From a virus: 64,000 bases of DNA. The DNA is taken from the IMG/VR virus record IMGVR_UViG_3300034107_000273, positions 32,001 to 96,000 of that record; one strand, 5' to 3'. Position numbers and translations under genes: made by a program. Under the pieces are notes generated by a model. It saw only the letters and a list, made by a program, of their open reading frames with translations, had not been told where the DNA came from and searched no databases. Numbering within the stretch: position 1 is the stretch's first letter; each line of letters begins with the position of its first letter. Shown here in pieces: positions 6,982 to 64,000 of this stretch.

Positions 6982-9900
6982 ATGAACTACGTTGGCTTAC
7001 ATGTCCATACACACTACTCCTTAATGGATGGTGTTGCTACTCCAGAAGAATACGTGAACCGTGCAGTTGCGTTAGGAATGCCAGCATTGGCTATTACTGA
7101 CCACGGTACTTTATCTGGGCATAGGGAACTGCACCGTATTGCAAAAGCAAATGGAATTAAGCCAATACTTGGTGTAGAAGGCTATATGACGACTAGTATG
7201 GCGGATAAGAGAGCAAAGGCAGATCGCCAAGATCCTCTTGACCTCAACTATCATCATATAGTCCTTCTCGCTAAGAACCAAGTTGGTCTTGAAAATCTTA
7301 ATAAGATTAATGAGATTGCATGGACAGATGGTTTCTTTAGTAAGCCAAGATTTGATTTTGAAACACTAGCAAAGTATAAAGAAGGACTAATCGTAACTTC
7401 TGGATGTTTAAGTGGATGGATTGCAAAAGCTGTTGAATTAGGTGAACTTGCAACAGCAAAGCGACACATGCAATGGTTTAAAAATGAATTTGGTGATGAT
7501 TACTATATTGAGGTAATGCCACATAACTCTGCTGAAATTAATAAAGGAATTATTGAGTTAGCAGATGCAATGAAGATTAAGATTGTTGTAACACCAGACT
7601 GTCATCATGCTGACGTAGATCAAAAAGAAGTTCAAGAACTAATGCTTCTTTTGAATACACACGCAAAGTTAGAAAAAGATGTTACATATGAGAAGTCAAA
7701 AAAGTATAATACTTTTATGGAGAGACTAGATTATCTATATGGTGCAGACCGTATGATGAGTTTTAATAAGTTTGACATTCATTTGCTTTCTTACGAACAG
7801 ATGAAGGATGCTATGCTAAAGCAGGGCATTGATCGTGAAGATATGTTTACTTCTACGATTGAGATTGCTAATAAGGTTGAAGATTATGATATTAAAGAAC
7901 ATTTAGACTTGCTTCCTGTTCAATATAAGAAGCCAATGAATGAACTTAAAAAGCTTGCTCTTGAAGGTTTATCTGAAAGAGGTTTAGAGTCTAATGAAGA
8001 ATATCTTGCAAGACTTGATGAAGAGTTAGAGATTATTGGACAAAAGAATTTTGGTCCATACTTCCTTGTTGTAAGAAATATGCTTAACTGGGCAAAGAGC
8101 GAAGGTATCATGGTTGGTCCTGGTCGTGGATCTGCAGCAGGTTCATTGCTTTGCTATGCACTTGGAATTACTGACATTGATCCAATTAAACATGGACTAC
8201 TGTTCTTCCGTTTTATTAATCCAGAACGTAATGACTTCCCTGATATTGACTCAGATATTCAAGATACTCGTCGTGATGAAGTTAAAGATTATCTAGTTAG
8301 ACAGTATCGCCATGTTGCATCTATTGCTACATTCTTACAGTTCAAGGATAAGGGTGTTGTGCGAGATGTTGCAAGATGCTTAAACATACCGTTGCCTGAT
8401 GTCAACAAGGTTCTAAAGGTTGTTGATACATGGGATGATTACTGTAACTCTAAGAATACTTTGTGGTTTAGAGAAAAGTATCCAGAGGTAGAACTGTACG
8501 GAGATCAACTTCGTGGAAGAATTCGTGGTACTGGAATTCACGCAGCAGGTGTAGTAACAAGTAAAGATCCAATCTTTAGATATGCACCAATGGAAACACG
8601 TTCAGTAACTGGACAGGATGAGCGCATCCCAGTAGTGGCAGTTGATATGGGTGAAGCAGAAAACATTGGTTTGATTAAGATTGATGCTCTTGGACTAAAG
8701 ACACTGAGCGTTCTTAAAGATTGTATTGATATTGTTAAAGAACGTGAAGGCACAAAGATTGATCTATTAAAGATTGATATGGATGATGCAAATGTTTATA
8801 ACATGCTATCTGATGGATACACCAAGGGTGTGTTCCAGTGTGAAGCAGCACCATACACAAACCTTCTAATTAAGATGCGTGTTAAAAACTTATCAGAACT
8901 TGCTGCATCAAATGCACTTGTTCGTCCTGGTGCTATGAACACAATTGGTAAATCTTATATTGCACGAAAGCATGGAAGAGAAAATATTGATTATAAGCAT
9001 CAAGTTATGAAAGCATTTACGGAGGAAACCTATGGCTGTATTCTTTACCAAGAGCAAGTTATGCAAGCATGCGTACAGCTTGGCGGTATGTCCATGTCGG
9101 AAGCAGATAAAGTTAGAAAGATCATTGGAAAGAAAAAGGATGCTAAAGAATTTGATGTTTTCAAAGATCAATTTGTTAAGGGTGCTTCACAATACCTTTC
9201 GCCAAATGATGCGTTAGATTTGTGGCATGACTTTGAGGCTCACGCAGGGTACTCATTCAATAAGTCTCACGCAGTAGCATATTCAACACTTTCATACTGG
9301 ACAGCGTGGTTAAAGTATCATTATCCTCTAGAGTTTATGTTTGCATTACTTAAGAACGAAAAAGACAAAGACGGAAGAACGGAGTATTTAATTGAAGCAA
9401 AACGTATGGGTATTACTGTTAAACTTCCGCATCTTAATGATTCGGAAATTGATTTTAAAATTGAAGGTAAAGGAATTAGATTTGGGCTTACGGGTATTAA
9501 ATATATCTCTGACAAAATTGCAGACAGATATATCGCAGGCCGTCCGTTCACATCATATAAACAAGTAGAAGAATTTACTTTTACTAAGGGTAATGGAGTT
9601 AATAGTCGTGCACTTCAAGCAATGAGATGTGTAGGAGCATTAACATTTCCAGATAATCCAGCAAATCCGCAGGAAGTTAAAGAAAATCTATATGAGTATC
9701 TTAACTTACCTGAGTTCAATACCTCTATTCCTCAACACTACTATGCATATATAAATGATGTAGAAGAATATGAAGAGACTGGATCTTTTGTATTACTTGG
9801 TATGGTTAAATCAATTAAGCGAAGCAAGGGTTGGTCACGAGTAGAGTTGCTTGATAAGACTGGCAGTGTTGGAATCTTTGATGAAGAAAATACTACAATT

Positions 9901-10257
9901 GAAGCTGGTAAAACTTATCTGCTTCTTGCTTCTGATAATAGAATTGTGTCTGCAATTCCAGCAGATGAAATCAAAGAATCAAAAGACTCTTTAATTAAGT
10001 TTTTAAATTATAAGATGCTTCCATATAAAGAAGGAGAACACTTTGTTGTTTCCTTTAAGCCAAGAGTTACAAAGGCTGGAAAGAAGATGGCTTCTCTTGT
10101 TGTTGCAGATGCAGGCAGAGAAATGCATTCAGTTGTTGTATTTCCAATGCAATTTGCAAAGGCATACATGAAGATTGAAGAAGGTAGTATATATAAGTTT
10201 GAGTTTGGAAAGACAAAAGATGGTACTATTATAATGAATGAGGTAGAAAATGTTTGA
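6982..10257 (+). CDS. dnaE: DNA polymerase III alpha subunit
   Basis: PHP domain HVHTHYSLMDG, GPGRGSAAGSL, PDIDSD, YSFNKSH. Confidence 0.97.
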   Translation: MNYVGLHVHTHYSLMDGVATPEEYVNRAVALGMPALAITDHGTLSGHRELHRIAKANGIKPILGVEGYMTTSMADKRAKADRQDPLDLNYHHIVLLAKNQVGLENLNKINEIAWTDGFFSKPRFDFETLAKYKEGLIVTSGCLSGWIAKAVELGELATAKRHMQWFKNEFGDDYYIEVMPHNSAEINKGIIELADAMKIKIVVTPDCHHADVDQKEVQELMLLLNTHAKLEKDVTYEKSKKYNTFMERLDYLYGADRMMSFNKFDIHLLSYEQMKDAMLKQGIDREDMFTSTIEIANKVEDYDIKEHLDLLPVQYKKPMNELKKLALEGLSERGLESNEEYLARLDEELEIIGQKNFGPYFLVVRNMLNWAKSEGIMVGPGRGSAAGSLLCYALGITDIDPIKHGLLFFRFINPERNDFPDIDSDIQDTRRDEVKDYLVRQYRHVASIATFLQFKDKGVVRDVARCLNIPLPDVNKVLKVVDTWDDYCNSKNTLWFREKYPEVELYGDQLRGRIRGTGIHAAGVVTSKDPIFRYAPMETRSVTGQDERIPVVAVDMGEAENIGLIKIDALGLKTLSVLKDCIDIVKEREGTKIDLLKIDMDDANVYNMLSDGYTKGVFQCEAAPYTNLLIKMRVKNLSELAASNALVRPGAMNTIGKSYIARKHGRENIDYKHQVMKAFTEETYGCILYQEQVMQACVQLGGMSMSEADKVRKIIGKKKDAKEFDVFKDQFVKGASQYLSPNDALDLWHDFEAHAGYSFNKSHAVAYSTLSYWTAWLKYHYPLEFMFALLKNEKDKDGRTEYLIEAKRMGITVKLPHLNDSEIDFKIEGKGIRFGLTGIKYISDKIADRYIAGRPFTSYKQVEEFTFTKGNGVNSRALQAMRCVGALTFPDNPANPQEVKENLYEYLNLPEFNTSIPQHYYAYINDVEEYEETGSFVLLGMVKSIKRSKGWSRVELLDKTGSVGIFDEENTTIEAGKTYLLLASDNRIVSAIPADEIKESKDSLIKFLNYKMLPYKEGEHFVVSFKPRVTKAGKKMASLVVADAGREMHSVVVFPMQFAKAYMKIEEGSIYKFEFGKTKDGTIIMNEVENV

Positions 10258-23210: not shown

Positions 23211-23238
23211 ACACCTGAGCATGTGTATAAACTGCTCA
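23211..23238 (+). ncRNA. Compact H-type pseudoknot motif, copy A
   Basis: ACAC-C-TGAGCA-T-GTGT-ATAAAC-TGCTCA immediately after the Hsp20 stop. Confidence 0.65.
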
Positions 23239-23240
23239 AT

Positions 23241-23273
23241 ATTCACTTGGATTTAATCATAAGTTTACCAATT
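23241..23273 (+). promoter_or_regulatory. Putative PHO box (three 11-nt units)
   Basis: ATTCACTTGGA TTTAATCATAA GTTTACCAATT upstream of the pstS -10. Confidence 0.4.
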
Positions 23274-23312
23274 ATAACAAAAGTATATAGTTTTACACTA
23301 TATACTATAAGT

Positions 23313-24356
23313 ATGAAATTTAAATTCATTACTTTACCAGTAGCATTAGCCATTTTTGCTAATGCTTTTTTTATTACTACTTCACATGCTGATAACCTAC
23401 AAGGTGCTGGATCCACATTTGCTGCTAACTTTATAGACAGATGTAGGGTTGAATTTATTAAATCAACAGGAGATTCTGTTGTATATGGAGCATCTGGATC
23501 GGGTGCTGGTAAAAATATGTTTTCAAATGGTGTAACAGATTTTGCTATGTCAGATGTTCCTTATTCTGGATCAGAACTAAAACCATCAAAAGAATTTACA
23601 TATGTTCCATTAGTCGCAGGACCAATTGGAATTATATACAATCTTGATGGATATAAAATTACTATTAAGATGAGTAAGGATACTCTTGCTAAAGTTTTTG
23701 CGGGACAAATAACAATGTGGAATGATCCACAGATATTAAAAGAAAATATGATAGGAACAAGACTGCCAAAGATACCATCAACAAAGATCAGAGTTGTTTA
23801 CCGTATTGATGGATCTGGAACTTCAGAAGTATTTACGTCATACCTTAACGCAATTGCTCCAAATATATGGACAAAGCCAGGTAATAAAAATTTTATATCT
23901 GCATTTCCTGGTGATATATCTAAGCAATATATGAATAGTGCTTCTGGTTCACATGGCATTGCAATGGTACAGAGTACTACAAATGGATCTATTGGATACA
24001 ACGAGATATCTTATGCAAGAGGACTTAAAACTATTTCTGTTGAGAATGAATCTGGAAGGTTTATGCAACCAACAGTTAGTGCAGCATCTGTATTTCTTGG
24101 AGATTTTGTTCCAGATAAAAGTGGGGCAGTTAAAATAAATTATAAAAATCCTAATAAACTATCCTATAACATATCTACATTCACCTACGGTATAGCATAC
24201 AAAGAAAAGAACTCAAAGAATGATTCTGTAAAGAAGTTCTTTAATTTTATGTTGGATACATGCGGTAAAAAAGCAGAAGATCTTGGATACTCACCAATAA
24301 GAGGAGCTATGCTTAAGTTTGCAAAGTCAAAGGTAGCAGAAGTAAGTTCAAAGTAG
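23313..24356 (+). CDS. pstS: Phosphate-binding protein PstS
   Basis: GAGSTF, SGSGAG, DFAMSD, RIDGSGTSEVFT; signal peptide; leaderless start. Confidence 0.93.
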   Translation: MKFKFITLPVALAIFANAFFITTSHADNLQGAGSTFAANFIDRCRVEFIKSTGDSVVYGASGSGAGKNMFSNGVTDFAMSDVPYSGSELKPSKEFTYVPLVAGPIGIIYNLDGYKITIKMSKDTLAKVFAGQITMWNDPQILKENMIGTRLPKIPSTKIRVVYRIDGSGTSEVFTSYLNAIAPNIWTKPGNKNFISAFPGDISKQYMNSASGSHGIAMVQSTTNGSIGYNEISYARGLKTISVENESGRFMQPTVSAASVFLGDFVPDKSGAVKINYKNPNKLSYNISTFTYGIAYKEKNSKNDSVKKFFNFMLDTCGKKAEDLGYSPIRGAMLKFAKSKVAEVSSK

Positions 24357-36359: not shown

Positions 36360-36401
36360 CGATTCCCCCATTTTATTATAAAACAATTGTATCATGCTTT
36401 G

Positions 36402-36474
36402 TACCCCTGGCAGGAATTGAACCTGCGACACCAGGCTTAGAAGTCCTGTGTTCTATCCACTGAACTACAGAGGT
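36402..36474 (-). tRNA. tRNA-Arg(TCT)
   Basis: Cloverleaf; anticodon loop CTTCTAA; GTTCAAT T-loop. Confidence 0.9.
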
Positions 36475-36475
36475 T

Positions 36476-36551
36476 TGGAGCGAAAGACGAGATTTGAACT
36501 CGCAACATCTACCTTGGCAAGGTAGTACTCTACCAATTGAGTTACTTCCGC
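36476..36551 (-). tRNA. tRNA-Gly(GCC)
   Basis: Cloverleaf; loop TTGCCAA; encoded CCA. Confidence 0.92.
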
Positions 36552-36555
36552 ATTG

Positions 36556-36628
36556 CTGGTCTGACAGGCTACGATCCTGTGACATCCGAATTAACAGTTC
36601 GGCGCTCTACCAACTGAGCTACAGACCA
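36556..36628 (-). tRNA. tRNA-Asn(GTT)
   Basis: Cloverleaf; loop CTGTTAA; atypical T-loop GATCGTAG. Confidence 0.85.
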
Positions 36629-36632
36629 CTAG

Positions 36633-36706
36633 TGCACCAGGTAGGACTTGAACCTACGACGACCAAATTATGAGTTTGGGGCTCTAACCAACTGAGCTAC
36701 TGGAGC
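36633..36706 (-). tRNA. tRNA-CAT (Ile2 or elongator Met)
   Basis: Cloverleaf; loop CTCATAA; one acceptor-stem mismatch. Confidence 0.85.
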
Positions 36707-45263: not shown

Positions 45264-45340
45264 TGGCGATCCGTACGAGACTTGAACTCGTGACCTCTAC
45301 CGTGACAGGGTAGCGCTCTAACCAACTGAGCTAACGGACC
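45264..45340 (-). tRNA. tRNA-Asp(GTC)
   Basis: Cloverleaf; loop CTGTCAC; encoded CCA. Confidence 0.92.
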
Positions 45341-47887: not shown

Positions 47888-48310
47888 TTAGAGATAACGA
47901 GCAACCGCATTGTAAGTGCTTGTGCTAACTACTTCCTCATCTGTCATCTTTAGGATACGAATAGCATTAGAGATTTCCTCTTTCTGCTCACGATAGTTAT
48001 AAACAGAGATTGACTCAAAATCCCTCTCAGGCTCTTTAGGTAAATCCTTGTCTGATACTGTTAGGTCGTAGTCAATGTTGAGAGTGTTGTTCCAGTTGCG
48101 ATAGTTAGTGCGAAAGTTTTCAGCCTTCTTGATGTTAGCAACCGCATAGTCGCTAATCTCTTTCTGCCAAGCCTTACGCAACTTTTCATACTTTGCTTCG
48201 TTTGCTTCTTGTGATGCGTAGTCTGCTTCTAGTTTAGCAAGTGCTACTTCTAGTGCCTTGATTACCTTTGGTGTTGCTATCTTTACTGAGATTGCTTTTT
48301 GACGTGCCAT
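47888..48310 (-). CDS. Hypothetical protein
   Basis: Own promoter. Confidence 0.65.
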   Translation of the reverse strand: MARQKAISVKIATPKVIKALEVALAKLEADYASQEANEAKYEKLRKAWQKEISDYAVANIKKAENFRTNYRNWNNTLNIDYDLTVSDKDLPKEPERDFESISVYNYREQKEEISNAIRILKMTDEEVVSTSTYNAVARYL

Positions 48311-48416
48311 GTGTTTTTCTCTTTTCTTTGGTGGGTTATTTATAGTATAGGGGTTGGGTGTGACATTTTTAGTGTGAGCAGTTTTAATTCATACTCAGGA
48401 ATAAGCAATTAACTAG

Positions 48417-48584
48417 TTACGCTTGGGCTTTCCATGTTGTCCAGCGTGTGTTGCCATTAACGTCTAACTTAACACGAACTGTATCCTTTGATGTTGGTGC
48501 GATTTCAAGGATTGTTCCTGTTACCTTTGACTTTTGTGATGTGTAGAGGTCGCCTACCTTGTATGTGTTTGTTGCTACTGTCAT
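48417..48584 (-). CDS. Small SH3/KOW-like protein
   Basis: YKVGD...TGTILEI; AGGAG SD. Confidence 0.55.
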   Translation of the reverse strand: MTVATNTYKVGDLYTSQKSKVTGTILEIAPTSKDTVRVKLDVNGNTRWTTWKAQA

Positions 48585-48771
48585 TTTATTTCTCCTTTTT
48601 AGTTTGTTGTATGTATTAAGTATAACATTTCCCACTGACATTTTTCAACTCCATTTCTGTTATTTCTCACTATTTGAGACGCTTGCGGGTGTGATGTAGG
48701 TCACTATTGGTAAATCAGGAACACTAATAGGGCTATTATGAATAGCGGAATTATGCTTTCCATTTATCTCC

Positions 48772-49494
48772 TTACTTTTTACTTGATGAGAATACAACGT
48801 CACTCTTTGAGTATACACAAAGTGAGCAAGAAACGCAAGCGGAGCCTTGTTGAGAGATTAGGGGAATGGCTTTTTTATTCTCAGGACACTTTGCCCCTAC
48901 CTTGCCAATCATCTCTTTCATGTCTGCTTGTCCTACTTGAAAGTTTTTTGCGAGGTATGCAAGACGAATACCATGATCTGTTTTAAGACCAATACCTATA
49001 GCCTTGTTTTCGCTATCTGTAGAATAGTATAAAGATAGATTAGGAATATCTTTAAGCATTACCGCTGCACTCTTCACTCTTGTATAAACCCAGAATTGAA
49101 TTTCAGGATTATTAAGGATGACATGCTTCCATGCGAATGTATAAGTATCATTAAAGAAGTCGCCGTCCCAATGAATACGGAATAGCATAGGGGCTTCACG
49201 CTTTACACAATCAGCCTTGAAGTCTGCAATCATCTCTTCAAGCAATGCTTCAATAGTATCATGATCAGCGTCTTTAACTAATTCCCAATTATGTAATAGG
49301 TTTTTCTTTACTGTTGGGAATACCTTTTCCAATTTGCCTGCATAGCAAACACTCTCGCAGACACTCGTTGCGCCAGGACATGAATAGTTTTTTCCTGCAG
49401 GTAGTCCAAAGGTGTTGGCGATACTTGCTTGTTTTCCATTAGGGGTGACGGCATTAGCGACCTTTCTGTCTTTGCTTCTGAGTAGTTTAGTCAT
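48772..49494 (-). CDS. Gp88-like Fe-S (radical-SAM-like) phage protein
   Basis: FGLPAG..SCPGA..CESVCYA, FRIHWDGDF, WVYTR. Confidence 0.7.
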   Translation of the reverse strand: MTKLLRSKDRKVANAVTPNGKQASIANTFGLPAGKNYSCPGATSVCESVCYAGKLEKVFPTVKKNLLHNWELVKDADHDTIEALLEEMIADFKADCVKREAPMLFRIHWDGDFFNDTYTFAWKHVILNNPEIQFWVYTRVKSAAVMLKDIPNLSLYYSTDSENKAIGIGLKTDHGIRLAYLAKNFQVGQADMKEMIGKVGAKCPENKKAIPLISQQGSACVSCSLCVYSKSDVVFSSSKK

Positions 49495-57755: not shown

Positions 57756-58340
57756 ATGGCACGTTTTACACAGATCGGCGAGCCTGGACCACAGGGGCCA
57801 GAGGGTCCTTCAGGTGCTGGATTTAGCACATACTTAGTTCGCAATAATACTGGATCAACAATTTTAAAAGGAACTTTAGTTTCTGCTGTAGATGCAGAGC
57901 CAAGCGGTAGAATTGATGTTGAACCATTTGCTGCTGTCGGAGGTTTAGATTCAGAGTTACGTGTAATGGGTATAGTTATGGATAACCTTTCAACAGGAAT
58001 TAACGGAACTGTCATGAGTCTGGGAACACTAACTGGATTAGATACTAGAGGAACATCTGCTAGCGGATTGTCAGTAGGAGATGAAACCTGGGCAGAAGGA
58101 GATATACTTTTTGCACATCCTGCAGTTGCAGGAAAACTTACTAAGGTAAGACCACAACATGATTTGCCAGTTGCTTTTATTACAATTCGCCATGCATCTT
58201 CAGGACAAATTGCAATTAGAATTGTTCCAGGAAATCATCATTTAGAGTGGCTACATGATGTTCAAATAACAAATCCTCAAAATGGTGATGTTTTAAAATT
58301 TAATAGTTCTTTGGGACTTTGGACTAATGTTGCAGAATAA
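57756..58340 (+). CDS. Fibre/decoration-type protein
   Basis: Short collagen run, VRNNTGSTILKG, LHDVQITNPQNGDVL. Confidence 0.6.
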   Translation: MARFTQIGEPGPQGPEGPSGAGFSTYLVRNNTGSTILKGTLVSAVDAEPSGRIDVEPFAAVGGLDSELRVMGIVMDNLSTGINGTVMSLGTLTGLDTRGTSASGLSVGDETWAEGDILFAHPAVAGKLTKVRPQHDLPVAFITIRHASSGQIAIRIVPGNHHLEWLHDVQITNPQNGDVLKFNSSLGLWTNVAE

Positions 58341-59375: not shown

Positions 59376-59462
59376 ATGATAATTAAAATTAAGGACACCA
59401 ATCCAAAACTTCCACCATTGATAAAAGTTAATGGGACTGTTTTCAAAGTAAAGAAATAACCA

Positions 59463-60200
59463 ATGGCCATATCAAAAAATATGGATGCTCCAAAAACCAG
59501 ATATTCTGAAGCAGTAAAATCAACCAAAAGCATAGAGGCTAACAATACTGAGTATATAGCCGTGCCAGGAATACAGGGAGAAAAAGGTGAGGTAGGCCCC
59601 GCAGGACCACAAGGACCTCAAGGCCCAAGAGGAGAGCGTGGTATTCCTGGAAAAGATGGTAAAGAAGGACCAAAAGGCCCTAAAGGTGATCCTGGTAAGG
59701 GCGGTGGAGAGGGTTACGAAAGTTCATCAGGTCAATATCCAGGATGGGCATATTATCAAAACAAAAATAAAAAACCATTATTTTTAGGCCCTGATAGAGG
59801 TCATGATGGTTGGGTAAATATTTTTATGGATGATGATGCAGATAATAATATTTTAAGATTTCTTCCAAAAGGCTCAGTTTCACTTTGGAATTCAGTGACA
59901 CAAAGAATCAACCTAAAGGGTTTAAAAGCAGGATCTATTATAACAATTCGTTATGATATTACTTTAAGCACATTTAACAATAATACAGAGGTTTGGTTTA
60001 GGACAGTTACCCCAGACCTTTCATATGGGCCTACGACTTTGGTTGGCAACTTAAAATATCAGTTTGAATACGACCTATCCCTAGAACATACATTTTTTGT
60101 AGAAAATGAAAAAATGAAAAACCTAGGTGCATACTCACAGGTCCTTACTGATAATGAGTCTTCAATGATCGTTAAGTCTATGTATATAAATATTCTTTAA
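59463..60200 (+). CDS. Collagen-repeat protein
   Basis: About 14 G-X-Y triplets and a globular C-domain. Confidence 0.8.
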
Positions 60201-60270
60201 AATAAAAATGTAAAATTAATATAATTGTCTGTATGTTTAAAATGTGTTATTTTGTGGTATACTTATGAAC

Positions 60271-61350
60271 ATGAGCGCCCAGAAACCTAATTCCATTGAT
60301 TCTTCAACAAAGTCAGCGCCACTTGCACCTACAATAGGAACAGCAACAAATGTTGGAACTGGTCGTGCCTATAATAATGGTTCTGCAACAATTACATTTA
60401 CTGCACCTACATTTGATGGAAAACTACCAATCACTTCTTATACTGTAACATCTAGCACTGGTGGATTTACAGCATCTGGTGCTTCATCTCCATTAACTGT
60501 AACAGGTCTTGCTTCTGGTACAGCATATACATTTACAGTAACTGCTACTAATGCAGTTGGCACAAGTCCTGCTTCTGCAGCATCCAATAGCATTACTGCA
60601 ACTACTGTTCCACAGGCTCCAACTATTGGAACTCCAACAGTTGCTACTGGTCAGGCTTATAGTGGATCTGCTTCTGTATCTGTTCCATTTACCACTAACG
60701 CAACTGGTGGTTCTACTATTACTAGTTATACAGTTACATCTTCATCAGGAAATACTGCTTCTGGTTCATCTTCTCCTATTTTAGTATCTGATACTGTAGG
60801 AACTGCTCGTACTTATACAGTTACCGCCACAAATGCAAATGGAACATCTACTGCCTCTTCTGCTAGTTCTTCTGTTACACCTTCTTCTGTTCCACAGGCT
60901 CCTACAATTGGTACCGCTACTGGTGGCGCAAGTGGTGTTGTGTCAGTACCTTTTACAGCTAACGCAACTGGTGGTTCTTCAGTTACTGGATTTACTGCGA
61001 CATCTTCTTCTGGACGTACTGCTTCAGGAGCTTCTTCTCCAATTCCGTTTACAGAAATTTCTGCTGGAACTTATACTTATACAGTTAGAGCAACAAATGC
61101 AAATGGTAACTCTGCAGCATCTGCTGCAAGTAATTCTGTAGTGTCAACATTTGGTCCGTTCTTCCCACCGTTCTTCCCATTCTTCCCACCATTCTTTCCA
61201 CCTTTCTTTCCATTTTTCCCATTCTTCCCACCGTTCTTCCCACCGTTCTTCCCAACATTTGGTCCATTCTTCCCACCTACATTTGGTCCATTCTTCCCAC
61301 CGTTCTTCCCATTCTTCCCTCCAAGATTTGGTGGCGGTGGAGCAGTCTAA
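60271..61350 (+). CDS. Triple-FN3 protein with (Pro-Phe-Phe)n C-terminal tail
   Basis: Three VPQAPTIG...YTVTATNANG repeats; 13 PFF units. Confidence 0.8.
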   Translation: MSAQKPNSIDSSTKSAPLAPTIGTATNVGTGRAYNNGSATITFTAPTFDGKLPITSYTVTSSTGGFTASGASSPLTVTGLASGTAYTFTVTATNAVGTSPASAASNSITATTVPQAPTIGTPTVATGQAYSGSASVSVPFTTNATGGSTITSYTVTSSSGNTASGSSSPILVSDTVGTARTYTVTATNANGTSTASSASSSVTPSSVPQAPTIGTATGGASGVVSVPFTANATGGSSVTGFTATSSSGRTASGASSPIPFTEISAGTYTYTVRATNANGNSAASAASNSVVSTFGPFFPPFFPFFPPFFPPFFPFFPFFPPFFPPFFPTFGPFFPPTFGPFFPPFFPFFPPRFGGGGAV

Positions 61351-61415
61351 ACGGTATCCTGAATAATACAAATATATTCCATATGATATACTTGTTTTAA
61401 ACAGGGGGTAACAAA

Positions 61416-62129
61416 ATGAACTCTTATGACGAAAATTCAAACGAGTGGTTTACAAAAGATCGTTCAGAGACATCATCCAATAGATCTAGTATCAGAGAGA
61501 TAAACTACAATATCTCAGTAGAAAATCCAGCTCTTGGATTAAATATTTATAAAAATACATTCTCTGCTACAGATGCAAATAGGTATATAGACATTCTTGA
61601 GTCTAACCTATCAGGAGATAAAAAATATAAATGGTCAGAAGCACAAGTTACCAACTCTACAGTTCCGATTAAAAAAGCACGAGACTGTGTAGACTTTAAA
61701 TATAAACAAGAAAACCTGGGTGCGAGAGATGAAAACAATTCTGAACTCTTAGATCTTCATCAAGAAATATATGAAAAGCTAAAGTTTTGTATAGACGATT
61801 ATGCAAGGTACTGGGGAATTAATGTTGTATATTACGAAGCCTTTAACTTTGTAAAGTATGAAGGAGAAGGAACCCACTTTAATATTCATGCAGACCACGG
61901 ACCAGCATATAACTGTACAGTGTCTGCTGTTATCTATATTAACGATGATTACGAGGGTGGCGAGATTAAGTTCCCAAGACTTGACAACTATGTTCATAAA
62001 CCAAGAGTAGGAGATATAGCGGTTTTCCCATCTAACTATATATATGAGCATGCATCACTTCCTATGAAGTCTGGAACAAAGTATTGTGTTGTTGTTATGA
62101 CAGATATCAATGAATTGGGACACAAGTAA
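61416..62129 (+). CDS. 2OG-Fe(II) oxygenase (P4H-like)
   Basis: HAD, YINDDYEGG, FPSNYIYEH, GTKY. Confidence 0.88.
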   Translation: MNSYDENSNEWFTKDRSETSSNRSSIREINYNISVENPALGLNIYKNTFSATDANRYIDILESNLSGDKKYKWSEAQVTNSTVPIKKARDCVDFKYKQENLGARDENNSELLDLHQEIYEKLKFCIDDYARYWGINVVYYEAFNFVKYEGEGTHFNIHADHGPAYNCTVSAVIYINDDYEGGEIKFPRLDNYVHKPRVGDIAVFPSNYIYEHASLPMKSGTKYCVVVMTDINELGHK

Positions 62130-62899
62130 TGTCTTTAGTTGCTATATTTAGATCCTTTAGGCCATGGATTAACAAAGATAGCAAGTCTACTCCTACATCA
62201 ACTCAAAATGAAATACCTCAATGGTATAAGGATGCTGATAGATTTGCAAAAAATGAATTAACTGGTGAGTACTATAAAGCACCAAAAGAGGTTTGCCCAT
62301 TTCCAAAAGAAGGAACACAGGATGACTATGGAAAGATTCCAACATGGAAAGCGTGTCCAGCAATCATGGATGCATTTTTAACTGGATATGTATTAAAGAC
62401 TCCTTGTGATCTTATATTTTTTAAAAATGAAAATGGATCAATAGATGTTAGAATTGATGATGAAAAACATTTAGATTTTTGTAGCAAAAGATTTGCAATG
62501 CCACAATTTGAACATCCAAAAGGTTTTTATAAAGATCACTTTGCATGGTATCCAGACTGGGGATTAGAGTTGCCAGAAGGATATAGCGCAATCTATATGA
62601 CTCCAATGAATAGATTTGATTTACCATTTATGAATACAACTGGAATTATTGATAATGATAGTGTTCATCTTTTAGGGACAATACCCTTTTTTATTCCAGA
62701 GGGATGGGAAGGAACTATTCCAGCAGGAACTCCTTATGTACAAATAATTCCATTTAAGAGAGAAAACTGGTATCATGAACTAGAATATTTAAATCATAAA
62801 GATATGTATGATAGAATGATATCAAATGCAAGTTTTTACCGTCAGCCTGATGGCGGTGTATATAAGAATAAGGTTTGGACTAGAAGAGAATATAAATAG
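62129..62899 (+). CDS. DUF6065-like hypothetical protein
   Basis: TWKACPAIMDAFLTGY, GTPYVQIIPFKRE. Confidence 0.6.
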   Translation: MSLVAIFRSFRPWINKDSKSTPTSTQNEIPQWYKDADRFAKNELTGEYYKAPKEVCPFPKEGTQDDYGKIPTWKACPAIMDAFLTGYVLKTPCDLIFFKNENGSIDVRIDDEKHLDFCSKRFAMPQFEHPKGFYKDHFAWYPDWGLELPEGYSAIYMTPMNRFDLPFMNTTGIIDNDSVHLLGTIPFFIPEGWEGTIPAGTPYVQIIPFKRENWYHELEYLNHKDMYDRMISNASFYRQPDGGVYKNKVWTRREYK

Positions 62900-62907
62900 G
62901 GGGAAAT

Positions 62908-63564
62908 ATGAATACTTGGACAGAGAAGGTAAATTTTGGTAATGGAATTGTTTGTTATCGTAATGTAATTAATTCTGATATCAAAGTTATAGAAAGACTT
63001 GAGGCTAACTTAAAGCCAGAAGGAGACAAAACGGGCTACAGCTGGTTGCCAGCGTATGTAGGCTATGGTGATTTAATGCCAGAATACAGAGATTGCAATG
63101 ACTTTAAGTTTAAAAAAACAGACCTTCAATATGATAAAAGTGAAACATCTGTAAATCTTCAAAGCCTATGGCAAGATGTTTATGATGTTCAGTTCCCAGC
63201 AGTTGAAGACTATAGAAGAGACTATAACATTATGGATCTTAGATACTGGGAGGCTTTTAACTTTATCAAGTATGGCCCAGGACAACATTTTCAAGAACAT
63301 CATGATCACGGGTTCTCATACAACTGTACTGTGTCACTTGTAGCATATCCAAATGATGACTATGAGGGTGGAGAACTATACTTTAGATTACAAGATTTAA
63401 AGATTAAGCCACAAGCTGGAGACCTATACATATTTCCATCTAATTTTATGTATCCTCATAAAGCTATGCCAGTTTTATCTGGAACAAAGTATTCAATAGT
63501 TACAATGCTTGATTACAACAAAAAGTTCCATACTCCAGAAATGTATGAGCCAGACAAAGAATAA
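62908..63564 (+). CDS. 2OG-Fe(II) oxygenase (P4H-like)
   Basis: HHD, YPNDDYEGG, FPSNFMYPH; paralog of 61416. Confidence 0.88.
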   Translation: MNTWTEKVNFGNGIVCYRNVINSDIKVIERLEANLKPEGDKTGYSWLPAYVGYGDLMPEYRDCNDFKFKKTDLQYDKSETSVNLQSLWQDVYDVQFPAVEDYRRDYNIMDLRYWEAFNFIKYGPGQHFQEHHDHGFSYNCTVSLVAYPNDDYEGGELYFRLQDLKIKPQAGDLYIFPSNFMYPHKAMPVLSGTKYSIVTMLDYNKKFHTPEMYEPDKE

Positions 63565-64000
63565 TGATAAACATAATTGCTGAAAAAGTAAAAGGATCTC
63601 ATATAAACGTTACACCAATGTCTATAAAAAGAGATTGGATGGATGAAACTCCAGAAAAGCACGCATATAGGTGTTTTCCAGTAACACAAGCAAATATGAT
63701 AGGTTGGACGCTATCTTGTGATATTGACATTAAGTTTATTTGGAATGGAGTAAATGATACATCCTCAGAAAATGTAAAAATTTTAGAAGGTGGTGACATT
63801 GTTTACACTGGTAGAGGTCAGTCTAGTGTAAGCTTTACAACTGGTCTGGTTTTTAAATCACCAGAAAACATAAGCCTTCTTGCTATTAATCCATCCAACT
63901 ACTTTAATAAAGACTTTGAAACCATATCTTCTCTAATCAGTACTTCTTGGTATGATAATGATTTTCCATTAGCAATAAAAGCACTCACTCCAAATAAAGA
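63564..64000 (+). CDS. DUF6065-like protein (3' truncated)
   Basis: RDWMD...HAYRCFPVTQANMIGW. Confidence 0.65.
   Translation, partial: MINIIAEKVKGSHINVTPMSIKRDWMDETPEKHAYRCFPVTQANMIGWTLSCDIDIKFIWNGVNDTSSENVKILEGGDIVYTGRGQSSVSFTTGLVFKSPENISLLAINPSNYFNKDFETISSLISTSWYDNDFPLAIKALTPNK

Follow-up and report, generated by a model that had tools for sequence, protein, structure and literature searches.

We analysed a window of 64,000 nucleotides (positions 32001-96000 of the 107,956-bp IMG/VR virus record IMGVR_UViG_3300034107_000273), near the end of which a gene for a protein tailed almost entirely with proline and phenylalanine precedes an array of genes for Fe(II)/2-oxoglutarate (2OG) oxygenases that resemble prolyl 4-hydroxylases (P4H). 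The gene for the tailed protein (60271-61350, plus strand), here called the tract gene, encodes 359 residues and ends with the stop codon at 61348-61350. Alternative in-frame starts occur at 60265 (ATG) and 60244 (GTG). The N-terminal part of the protein (60271-61155) includes an fn3 domain (PF00041) at residues 35-106, identified with an E-value of 1.9e-11 and 44.5 bits against a cut-off of 25. The motif VPQAPTIGT occurs twice, giving three FN3-like modules, compared with two in the closest relatives. Also identified were a weak Pfam match to Y_Y_Y at residues 253-290 and a match to the "minor tail protein" family phrog_6977 (E 9.5e-8), and 6435 FN3 homologues span about 75% of the protein. 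The N-terminus lacks a signal peptide-like sequence; we read this as indicating that the protein is probably made where soluble phage enzymes can reach it.

The Pro/Phe tract (61156-61332, residues 296-354), delimited by its sequence and composition, is the proposed substrate of the enzymes encoded behind it. It comprises 59 residues (29 F, 24 P, 3 G, 2 T and 1 R), 90% of which are Pro or Phe, and contains exactly 13 PFF units, as the first-pass annotation of this DNA had described. PFF and PPFF units are mixed, and are broken by two TFG units and by one RFG unit that closes the tract. The chain ends five residues later, and its C-terminus reads GGGGAV.

Related viral contigs encode 155 distinct tract proteins, in which the tract is composed of 52.7% F, 43.0% P and 1.8% Y and spans a median of 63 residues (range 17-181). 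Tract length differs by whole units even between close relatives. What follows the tract is variable: 69 of the 155 proteins have Cys-rich ends of about 30 residues, 56 have short Cys-free ends as in the window, 13 have Hint-like ends and 17 have other domains. The Cys-rich ends (L005, L012, L045, L048 and many others), for example CSGC..YCWQACP.CCG.CGC, have no Pfam match. A domain of about 180 residues that follows the tract in P0004, L024, L038, L064, L065 and L106 starts with Cys or Ser and has a VGD motif. Its matches to Intein_splicing and Hint_2 are below threshold; this domain may be self-cleaving, and it is absent from the window protein.

Long Pro/Phe tracts were not found in the genomes of 185,579 species, other than in mis-binned copies of this phage module. 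These exceptions are low-GC lake contigs (L292, L295, L301, L302 and L304) of metagenome-assembled genomes labelled Luteolibacter, Bacteroidetes, Beijerinckiaceae, Acidimicrobiaceae and Chitinophagaceae, and they carry the same oxygenase and DUF genes. Because the contigs are spread over bins of five phyla, they most likely represent binning contamination rather than prophages.

The mixture of synonymous codons in the tract had been taken as a sign of selection on the protein. The mixture is literally true (CCA 16, CCG 5 and CCT 3; TTC 23 and TTT 6), but the argument built on it is weak, as the DNA is itself a tandem repeat with skewed codons. The repeat has periods of 12, 21 and 33 nt and includes an exact 24-nt duplication. 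TTC makes up 79% of the Phe codons in the window tract and 90% in tracts family-wide, compared with 18.5% in the other long open reading frames (ORFs) of the window and with none of the nine Phe codons in the FN3 part of the same gene. The CCG share of Pro codons is 21% in the window tract, 26% in tracts family-wide and 2.6% in the other long ORFs of the window. Homopolymer avoidance, repeat homogenisation or translation speed are possible causes of this bias. A better sign of selection on the protein than the synonymous codons is the conservation of the reading frame over varied unit orders: the Pro/Phe frame is read in all 155 distinct tracts of other contigs, which differ in the order of their units and in length. 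Other frames over the repeat (71 residues on the plus strand, 63 and 98 residues on the minus strand) were set aside as by-products of the repeat, since the Pro/Phe frame alone runs on from the FN3 domains, both in the window and in relatives.

Five tRNA genes were identified in the window, all on the minus strand (36401-36706 and 45264-45340): a block for Arg-TCT, Gly-GCC, Asn-GTT and Met-CAT, plus Asp-GTC. No tRNA-Phe or tRNA-Pro able to serve the tract is among them. In sequencing run X2, DNA contigs break at the repeat (window 60978-61445), one ending at 61185 and the next beginning at 61290, and summed depth there rises about ten-fold as the tracts of many co-occurring phages pile up. Assembled tract lengths may be unreliable.

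The array starts 65 nt past the stop codon of the tract gene. Its genes are co-oriented with the tract gene and tightly spaced, and nothing resembling a terminator was identified in the 65-nt gap. The first four genes, all on the plus strand, encode the oxygenase ox1 (61416-62129; PF13640, E 1.1e-10), a protein distantly related to DUF6065 and here called duf1 (62129-62899), the ox1 paralogue ox2 (62908-63564; PF13640, E 3.2e-14) and a DUF6065 protein of 238 residues that is truncated by the window end (63564-64000; PF19541, E 1.2e-25 for the partial and 1.2e-32 for the full-length sequence). Two paralogous P4H-like oxygenases alternating with two DUF genes had been reported for this locus, and this arrangement is borne out; the cluster itself is longer. 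Genes past the window end were read on L002, where coordinates equal the window coordinate minus 56000. They include five more consecutive PF13640 oxygenases and a short-chain dehydrogenase (adh_short, E 9e-40), so that the whole array encodes seven PF13640 oxygenases, two dUTPase-fold proteins and one short-chain dehydrogenase. In many relatives the first oxygenase gene is separated from the tract gene by an additional gene of about 145 codons that has no Pfam match (L005:1636-2076, L048:4474-4902); the window has none.

Beyond the array are an SLT lysozyme gene on the minus strand and then genes for a 791-residue structural protein and an 846-residue Mtd_N tail fibre. Upstream of the tract gene is a gene for a collagen-like tail-fibre protein of 245 residues (59463-60200, plus strand; Pfam Collagen, E 1.9e-7; PHROG tail-fibre families, best E 2e-17), a position occupied by an Mtd_N tail fibre in other clades. 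Judged by these annotated neighbours, the tract gene belongs to the tail-fibre module. The earlier suggestion that the protein could form a virion appendage fits this position.

All seven oxygenases match PF13640 (2OG-FeII_Oxy_3) with 33.1-54.1 bits, above the curated cut-off of 27. Alignment of the paralogues shows that the HxD...H iron triad and the Lys or Arg for 2-oxoglutarate are kept in all seven, and H158, D160, H212 and K222 are invariant in 35 orthologues of ox1. ox1 and ox2 are 44% identical. Separate orthologues were identified for every paralogue, in 73-163 of the 200 related loci compared (163 for ox1, 154 for ox2), and we therefore consider the seven to be old, retained and distinct genes rather than recent duplicates.

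The AlphaFold2 model of ox1 (mean pLDDT, the per-residue model confidence, of 87.6) adopts a double-stranded beta-helix fold that is closest to peptidyl-prolyl or peptidyl-lysyl hydroxylases; by Foldseek, it matches P4H of Chlamydomonas (2jig and 3gze, the latter with a (Ser-Pro)5 peptide bound), the P4H-type enzyme vCPH of the chlorovirus PBCV-1 (5c5t, rank 5, E 5e-8), P4H of Bacillus anthracis, PHD2, the lysyl hydroxylase LH3 and the prolyl 3-hydroxylase P3H1. The list also includes 3dkq and 9qn0, bacterial 2OG oxygenases with another or an unknown function, and all listed matches have a probability of 1.00. By sequence, the nearest solved relatives of ox1, ox3, ox5 and ox6 are P4H, P3H1 or LH3; B. 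anthracis P4H (3itq, 5hv0) is the nearest of these to all four (E 3e-5 to 1e-2), and 5c5t is also a weak sequence match of ox3. On the basis of the modelled fold and these sequence relatives, the label "P4H-like" is justified, and prolyl hydroxylation is the predicted activity. A co-fold of ox1 (from a 35-row alignment) with tail residues 290-359 gave a score of 0.00 in a run without controls, which speaks neither for nor against binding. Among INPHARED phages, the best matches of ox1 are cyanophage oxygenases with only 25-33% identity, and we found no DNA match for 59400-64000 and no protein match for the tail protein or for the DUF6065 protein.

The gene at 63564 is a true DUF6065 member (PF19541, 113.8 bits for the full-length sequence against a cut-off of 26.6). 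The first of the two genes that had been described as DUF6065-like, duf1, has no Pfam match even at an E-value of 1, and it is tied to the family by an hhalign comparison (probability 48%, E 1.9e-4) and by a common match, in that the profiles of both proteins find gp43 of the Synechococcus phage Syn9 (E 2.6e-10 for duf1, 4.6e-5 for DUF6065). These profile comparisons suggest distant homology, and we call duf1 DUF6065-like but do not place it in the DUF6065 family. Its AlphaFold2 model (pLDDT 80.8) is predicted to have the jelly-roll fold of dUTPases and dCTP deaminases: in VIA-align, each of the top 22 matches belongs to this fold (dUTPases and dCTP deaminases, along with two dUTPase-fold proteins of viruses), at Z-scores of 5.5-9.6 over 95-129 aligned residues, and Foldseek probabilities are 0.99-1.00. 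By sequence, the duf1 profile had no match in the PDB and found no solved dUTPase. A GI[IV]DxD motif in duf1 resembles dUTPase motif III, by our own reading only. An invariant Cys is present in both proteins (C76 in duf1, C37 in DUF6065). Relatives of duf1 in INPHARED are only 25-30% identical and are hypothetical proteins of the halovirus HF2 group, which stand alone without oxygenases. One of these is in the Halorubrum phage HF2, a haloarchaeal tailed virus (L192, record 48119-49003), where a lone duf1 homologue is annotated as hypothetical. We found no mention of DUF6065 in the literature.

Tract genes were sought in IMG/VR viral contigs with a back-translated PFFPPFFPFFP pattern, and neighbouring oxygenase and DUF genes were called with local profiles built from the oxygenases and DUF genes of the window. 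At least 118 contigs matched. Among the matches listed, an ORF reads the repeat as Pro/Phe in every contig, and an oxygenase is encoded within 1.5 kb downstream on the same strand for 77 of the 96 tract ORFs that have at least 1.5 kb of downstream sequence. For six further tract ORFs an oxygenase lies within 2.1 kb. Five tract genes that lack an adjacent oxygenase were checked at the level of the record: four records have 6-13 PF13640 genes elsewhere, and the fifth is only 26% complete. In the other direction, relatives of duf1 occur in at least 592 viral contigs, and among the best 80 of these a Pro/Phe-rich ORF is present within 4 kb upstream on the same strand in all 48 loci with at least 3.5 kb of upstream sequence. 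The same is true of a divergent clade in which duf1 is 49% identical to that of the window (Pro/Phe-tract gene upstream in six of six loci). Genomic linkage in relatives, whose absence the first-pass annotation had named as a refutation, thus holds in both directions, and it does so across rearranged gene orders. Four local orders were identified: OX-DUF1-OX-DUF2, OX-OX-DUF2-DUF1, two small tract genes in tandem, and three genes between the tract gene and the array. Despite these changes, the tract gene always heads the array, upstream and co-oriented.

More distant homologues of duf1 (L208-L210, 35-38% identical) are accompanied neither by a Pro/Phe tract nor by PF13640 genes; the absence of oxygenases is based on the local profile of the seven oxygenases, which is blind to distant 2OG families, and on Pfam scans of eight ORFs of L209 and two of L208. 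The cassette in L209 (2654-7936) and L210 encodes an FN3 and Gly_rich_2 protein, two duf1-like proteins, a sulfotransferase, an Asp/Asn beta-hydroxylase and an adenosine 5'-phosphosulfate (APS) kinase. This appears to be another layout in which an FN3 protein is followed by tailoring enzymes, and the annotations suggest hydroxylation and sulfation of a phage FN3 protein.

We give roughly even credence to the reading that this phage hydroxylates its own fibre-associated Pro/Phe polymer by means of the array encoded behind it. The locus would then be a phage-encoded protein-modification module. Its substrate would be the FN3-(Pro/Phe)n protein, a product of the tail-fibre module that is made in the cytoplasm and probably ends up on the virion. 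After translation, the seven P4H-like oxygenases would hydroxylate the tract, targeting prolines in FPP, PPF and FPF contexts and possibly the side-chain carbons of Phe. An extremely hydrophobic polymer might in this way become a soluble, stiff polyproline-II-like stalk or a sticky appendage. The two dUTPase-fold proteins and the short-chain dehydrogenase are fixed members of the module, and one possible role for them is to oxidise a hydroxyl group further. We infer the identity of the substrate, the residues that are modified and the effect of the modification; the tract is the likeliest substrate because tract and enzymes occur together in all related phage fragments for which a check was possible.

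Several lines of evidence favour hydroxylation of the tract. The tract gene and the array are linked in both directions of search, tightly spaced and co-oriented, without a terminator-like site between them, and their pairing is kept through different gene orders. Where the tract is missing, in the L208-L210 loci, no PF13640 genes were identified either. In their HxD...H residues, their fold and their sequence relatives, the enzymes resemble hydroxylases of proteins, and the retention of separate orthologues for each of the seven paralogues is in keeping with this reading, as is the absence of long Pro/Phe tracts from the genomes of the 185,579 species, mis-binned phage copies aside.

Other points weigh against it. 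Linkage and fold agree with the substrate-plus-tailoring-enzyme locus proposed in the first-pass annotation, and hydroxylation itself stays a prediction. The linked contigs all come from a single lineage of lake phages, an abundant one, in which the terminase large subunit (TerL) is 81-98% and duf1 49-83% identical to that of the window, and in which ox1 identity ranges from 39 to 87%. The terminase values apply to the best 80 of at least 597 contigs; these 80 are mostly short, and with the terminase as anchor no set of relatives lacking both tract and array was obtained. Because the contigs belong to one lineage, the linkage counts are not independent events, and inherited synteny explains part of the linkage signal. 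Nor is it obviously economical to devote seven or more enzymes to a polymer of two letters.

A different explanation is that the target of the array is a small molecule, which it would synthesise or alter, or else host proteins, which it would hydroxylate, and that the array merely shares a variable fibre region with the Pro/Phe protein. The parallel is the array gp41-gp54 of Syn9, in which ten tandem dioxygenases and a dUTPase-fold protein were assigned to the synthesis of a secondary metabolite (Iyer, Abhiman, de Souza & Aravind, 2010; PMC2938197). By elimination and by profile match, the dUTPase-fold protein of that array is gp43, to which both duf1 and DUF6065 are homologous. Both arrays have many 2OG-Fe(II) dioxygenase paralogues that are not recent, with an embedded dUTPase-fold protein that has a conserved Cys, and both are located just downstream of tail-fibre genes. 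No Pro/Phe-tract protein adjoins the Syn9 array and no protein substrate was proposed there; an array of this homologous kind can thus exist without such a protein. The conserved adh_short dehydrogenase, the dUTPase-fold proteins and a TauD-family enzyme encoded in one relative would suit a small-molecule pathway equally well, the dehydrogenase and the TauD-family enzyme being typical small-molecule enzymes.

The two arrays differ in other respects. Two tryptophan halogenases and a JmjC-type member are part of the Syn9 array, whereas Pfam gives only PF13640, DUF6065 and adh_short for the window array, in which no halogenase, JmjC/MINA-type member or peptide-synthetase partner was identified. 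The local profile of the seven window oxygenases, which is blind to distant 2OG families, matched none of the dioxygenases of Syn9, and the host of Syn9 is a cyanobacterium whereas the window phage looks actinobacterial. The window array is a relative in kind of the Syn9 array, without halogenases and with different oxygenase families. Synteny without a substrate relation is also at odds with an adjacency that is kept through four or more gene orders and in spite of about 50% divergence of the proteins, with tract genes that are always upstream and co-oriented, and with the finding that every oxygenase compared is nearest to protein prolyl or lysyl hydroxylases and not to small-molecule 2OG enzymes. 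We regard it as the main rival reading, but as rather improbable.

Alternatively, the enzymes may be true prolyl hydroxylases whose main substrates are other virion proteins, such as the upstream collagen-like fibre or the short Gly-X-Y stretch of the protein encoded at 57756-58340, the role of the tract being separate and structural. Gly-X-Y tracts that contain Pro are the classical substrate of P4H, the nearest solved sequence relative is the B. anthracis enzyme, the window has its collagen-like fibre gene directly upstream, and in some relatives collagen-like genes flank the array (L065, L103). The collagen-repeat gene pointed out upstream of the tract gene is indeed present, but it is not a consistent partner. 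A collagen-like ORF was identified in only six of 27 large array-centred loci, all six among the closest relatives of the window, compared with a Pro/Phe tract gene in all of the 48 loci that could be scored. Moreover, collagen-like fibres are common in phages without P4H. We consider it unlikely that such proteins are the main substrates.

An action on nucleotides or DNA, for example base hypermodification in which the dUTPase-fold proteins would handle the nucleotide and the oxygenases oxidise the base, seems very unlikely to us. It would draw on the fold of duf1 (Z up to 9.6), on the resemblance of its consensus GIVDSD to dUTPase motif III, again by our own reading only, and on a weak match of ox3 to Tet_JBP (E 4.9e-4). 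That match, at 19.8 bits, is far below the cut-off of 34.9 and lies beneath a stronger match to PF13640. Both by fold and by sequence, the oxygenases have protein hydroxylases as their neighbours, no solved dUTPase was found by the duf1 profile, and the array is in the fibre module, away from the replication genes.

The least probable alternative, which we would all but dismiss, is a ribosomally synthesised and post-translationally modified peptide (RiPP)-like system whose product would be a short C-terminal peptide, modified and then released, with the FN3 part and the tract serving as its leader or scaffold: the Cys-rich peptides and the Hint-like domains able to cut the chain in relatives would be in its favour, but the window protein ends five residues past its tract, 56 of the 155 relatives have short Cys-free ends, the Hint matches are below Pfam cut-offs, and the array genes showed neither a RiPP recognition element nor a protease or exporter. 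The suggestion of a RiPP-like peptide in the first-pass annotation is thus without support for this protein. The same applies to its idea that hydroxylation primes glycosylation as in hydroxyproline-rich glycoproteins, as Pfam scans of the array genes identified no glycosyltransferase in the window array.

Hydroxylation of the tract by the array would have partial precedents. PBCV-1 encodes both vCPH and proline-rich repeat proteins that are able to serve as its substrate. Unlike the window phage, it is a virus of a eukaryotic alga and has a single enzyme of this type, compared with seven or more here, without dUTPase-fold or dehydrogenase partners. Its repeats are of the Pro-Ala-Pro-Lys type, and their genes are not known to adjoin that of the enzyme. 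Chlamydomonas Cr-P4H-1 (2jig, 3gze) provides the best structural matches of ox1. It acts on a Pro-rich repeat that is not collagen and holds a polyproline-II (Ser-Pro)5 peptide in its active-site groove. Sequence identity is about 14%, however, and in plants such enzymes act on hydrophilic Ser-Pro repeats, which subsequently become glycosylated, whereas half of the window tract is phenylalanine. B. anthracis P4H is prokaryotic and the nearest solved relative by sequence, but it is a single enzyme, and its proposed substrates are Gly-X-Y collagen-like repeats or EF-Tu rather than Pro/Phe polymers. We found no description of a system combining a Pro/Phe tract with oxygenases in the literature.

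Arrays of 2OG-Fe(II) oxygenases are among the commonest unexplained gene sets of aquatic phages. Either secondary metabolism or the nitrogen physiology of the host has been proposed as their role, but without a known substrate. A chemically extreme candidate substrate that is adjacent to such an array, and linked to it across hundreds of contigs, turns this into a directly testable question. If the tract is hydroxylated, a phage fibre-region protein would undergo extensive enzymatic tailoring after translation, the Pro/Phe repeat would be a new class among P4H substrates, and DUF6065 and the dUTPase-fold proteins like Syn9 gp43 would gain their first functional context. A bolder version, which we put forward as speculation and think improbable, is that the Pro/Phe polymer is a new, enzymatically tailored biopolymer of the virion, in which the hydroxylases, the dehydrogenase and the dUTPase-fold partners install several different modifications, namely 3- and 4-hydroxyproline, beta-hydroxy-phenylalanine and possibly keto groups. 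Such a polymer would be a new adhesive or structural material, the phage counterpart of adhesive proteins rich in hydroxyproline and 3,4-dihydroxyphenylalanine (DOPA), and the long-orphan 2OG-oxygenase arrays of phages would have their first defined substrate.

This is an abundant lake lineage, represented by at least 590 contigs; at least 14 lake or freshwater runs of different studies contain near-identical DNA, and the ecological reach of the module is accordingly wide. In three lake metatranscriptome runs, contigs were identified that cover portions of five genes (the tail gene, ox1, duf1, ox2 and the DUF6065 gene), and one of 468 nt bridges 61308-61776, from the end of the tail gene into ox1. 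Metatranscriptome libraries can hold DNA, the contigs show neither level nor strand, and the parts that they do not cover carry no meaning. Together with the terminator-free gap, these contigs are compatible with co-transcription of tract gene and array, but are proof neither of this nor of expression.

The host is likely, though not proven, to be a freshwater actinobacterium. The window encodes a DnaE-type DNA polymerase III alpha subunit (6982-10257) that shares 55% identity with its counterparts in Streptomyces phages with genomes of about 127 kb, among them Wakanda and BillNye. The pattern TGTCAG-N10-TANNNT occurs 12 times between 46436 and 55133, 11 of these on the minus strand, compared with 0.98 expected by chance; we take it to resemble the actinobacterial RecA-independent (PafBC) promoter, which hints at the host. 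Also present in the window, as an auxiliary metabolic gene, is one for a PstS-like subunit of a phosphate transporter (23223-24356; phrog_5385, E 2e-40).

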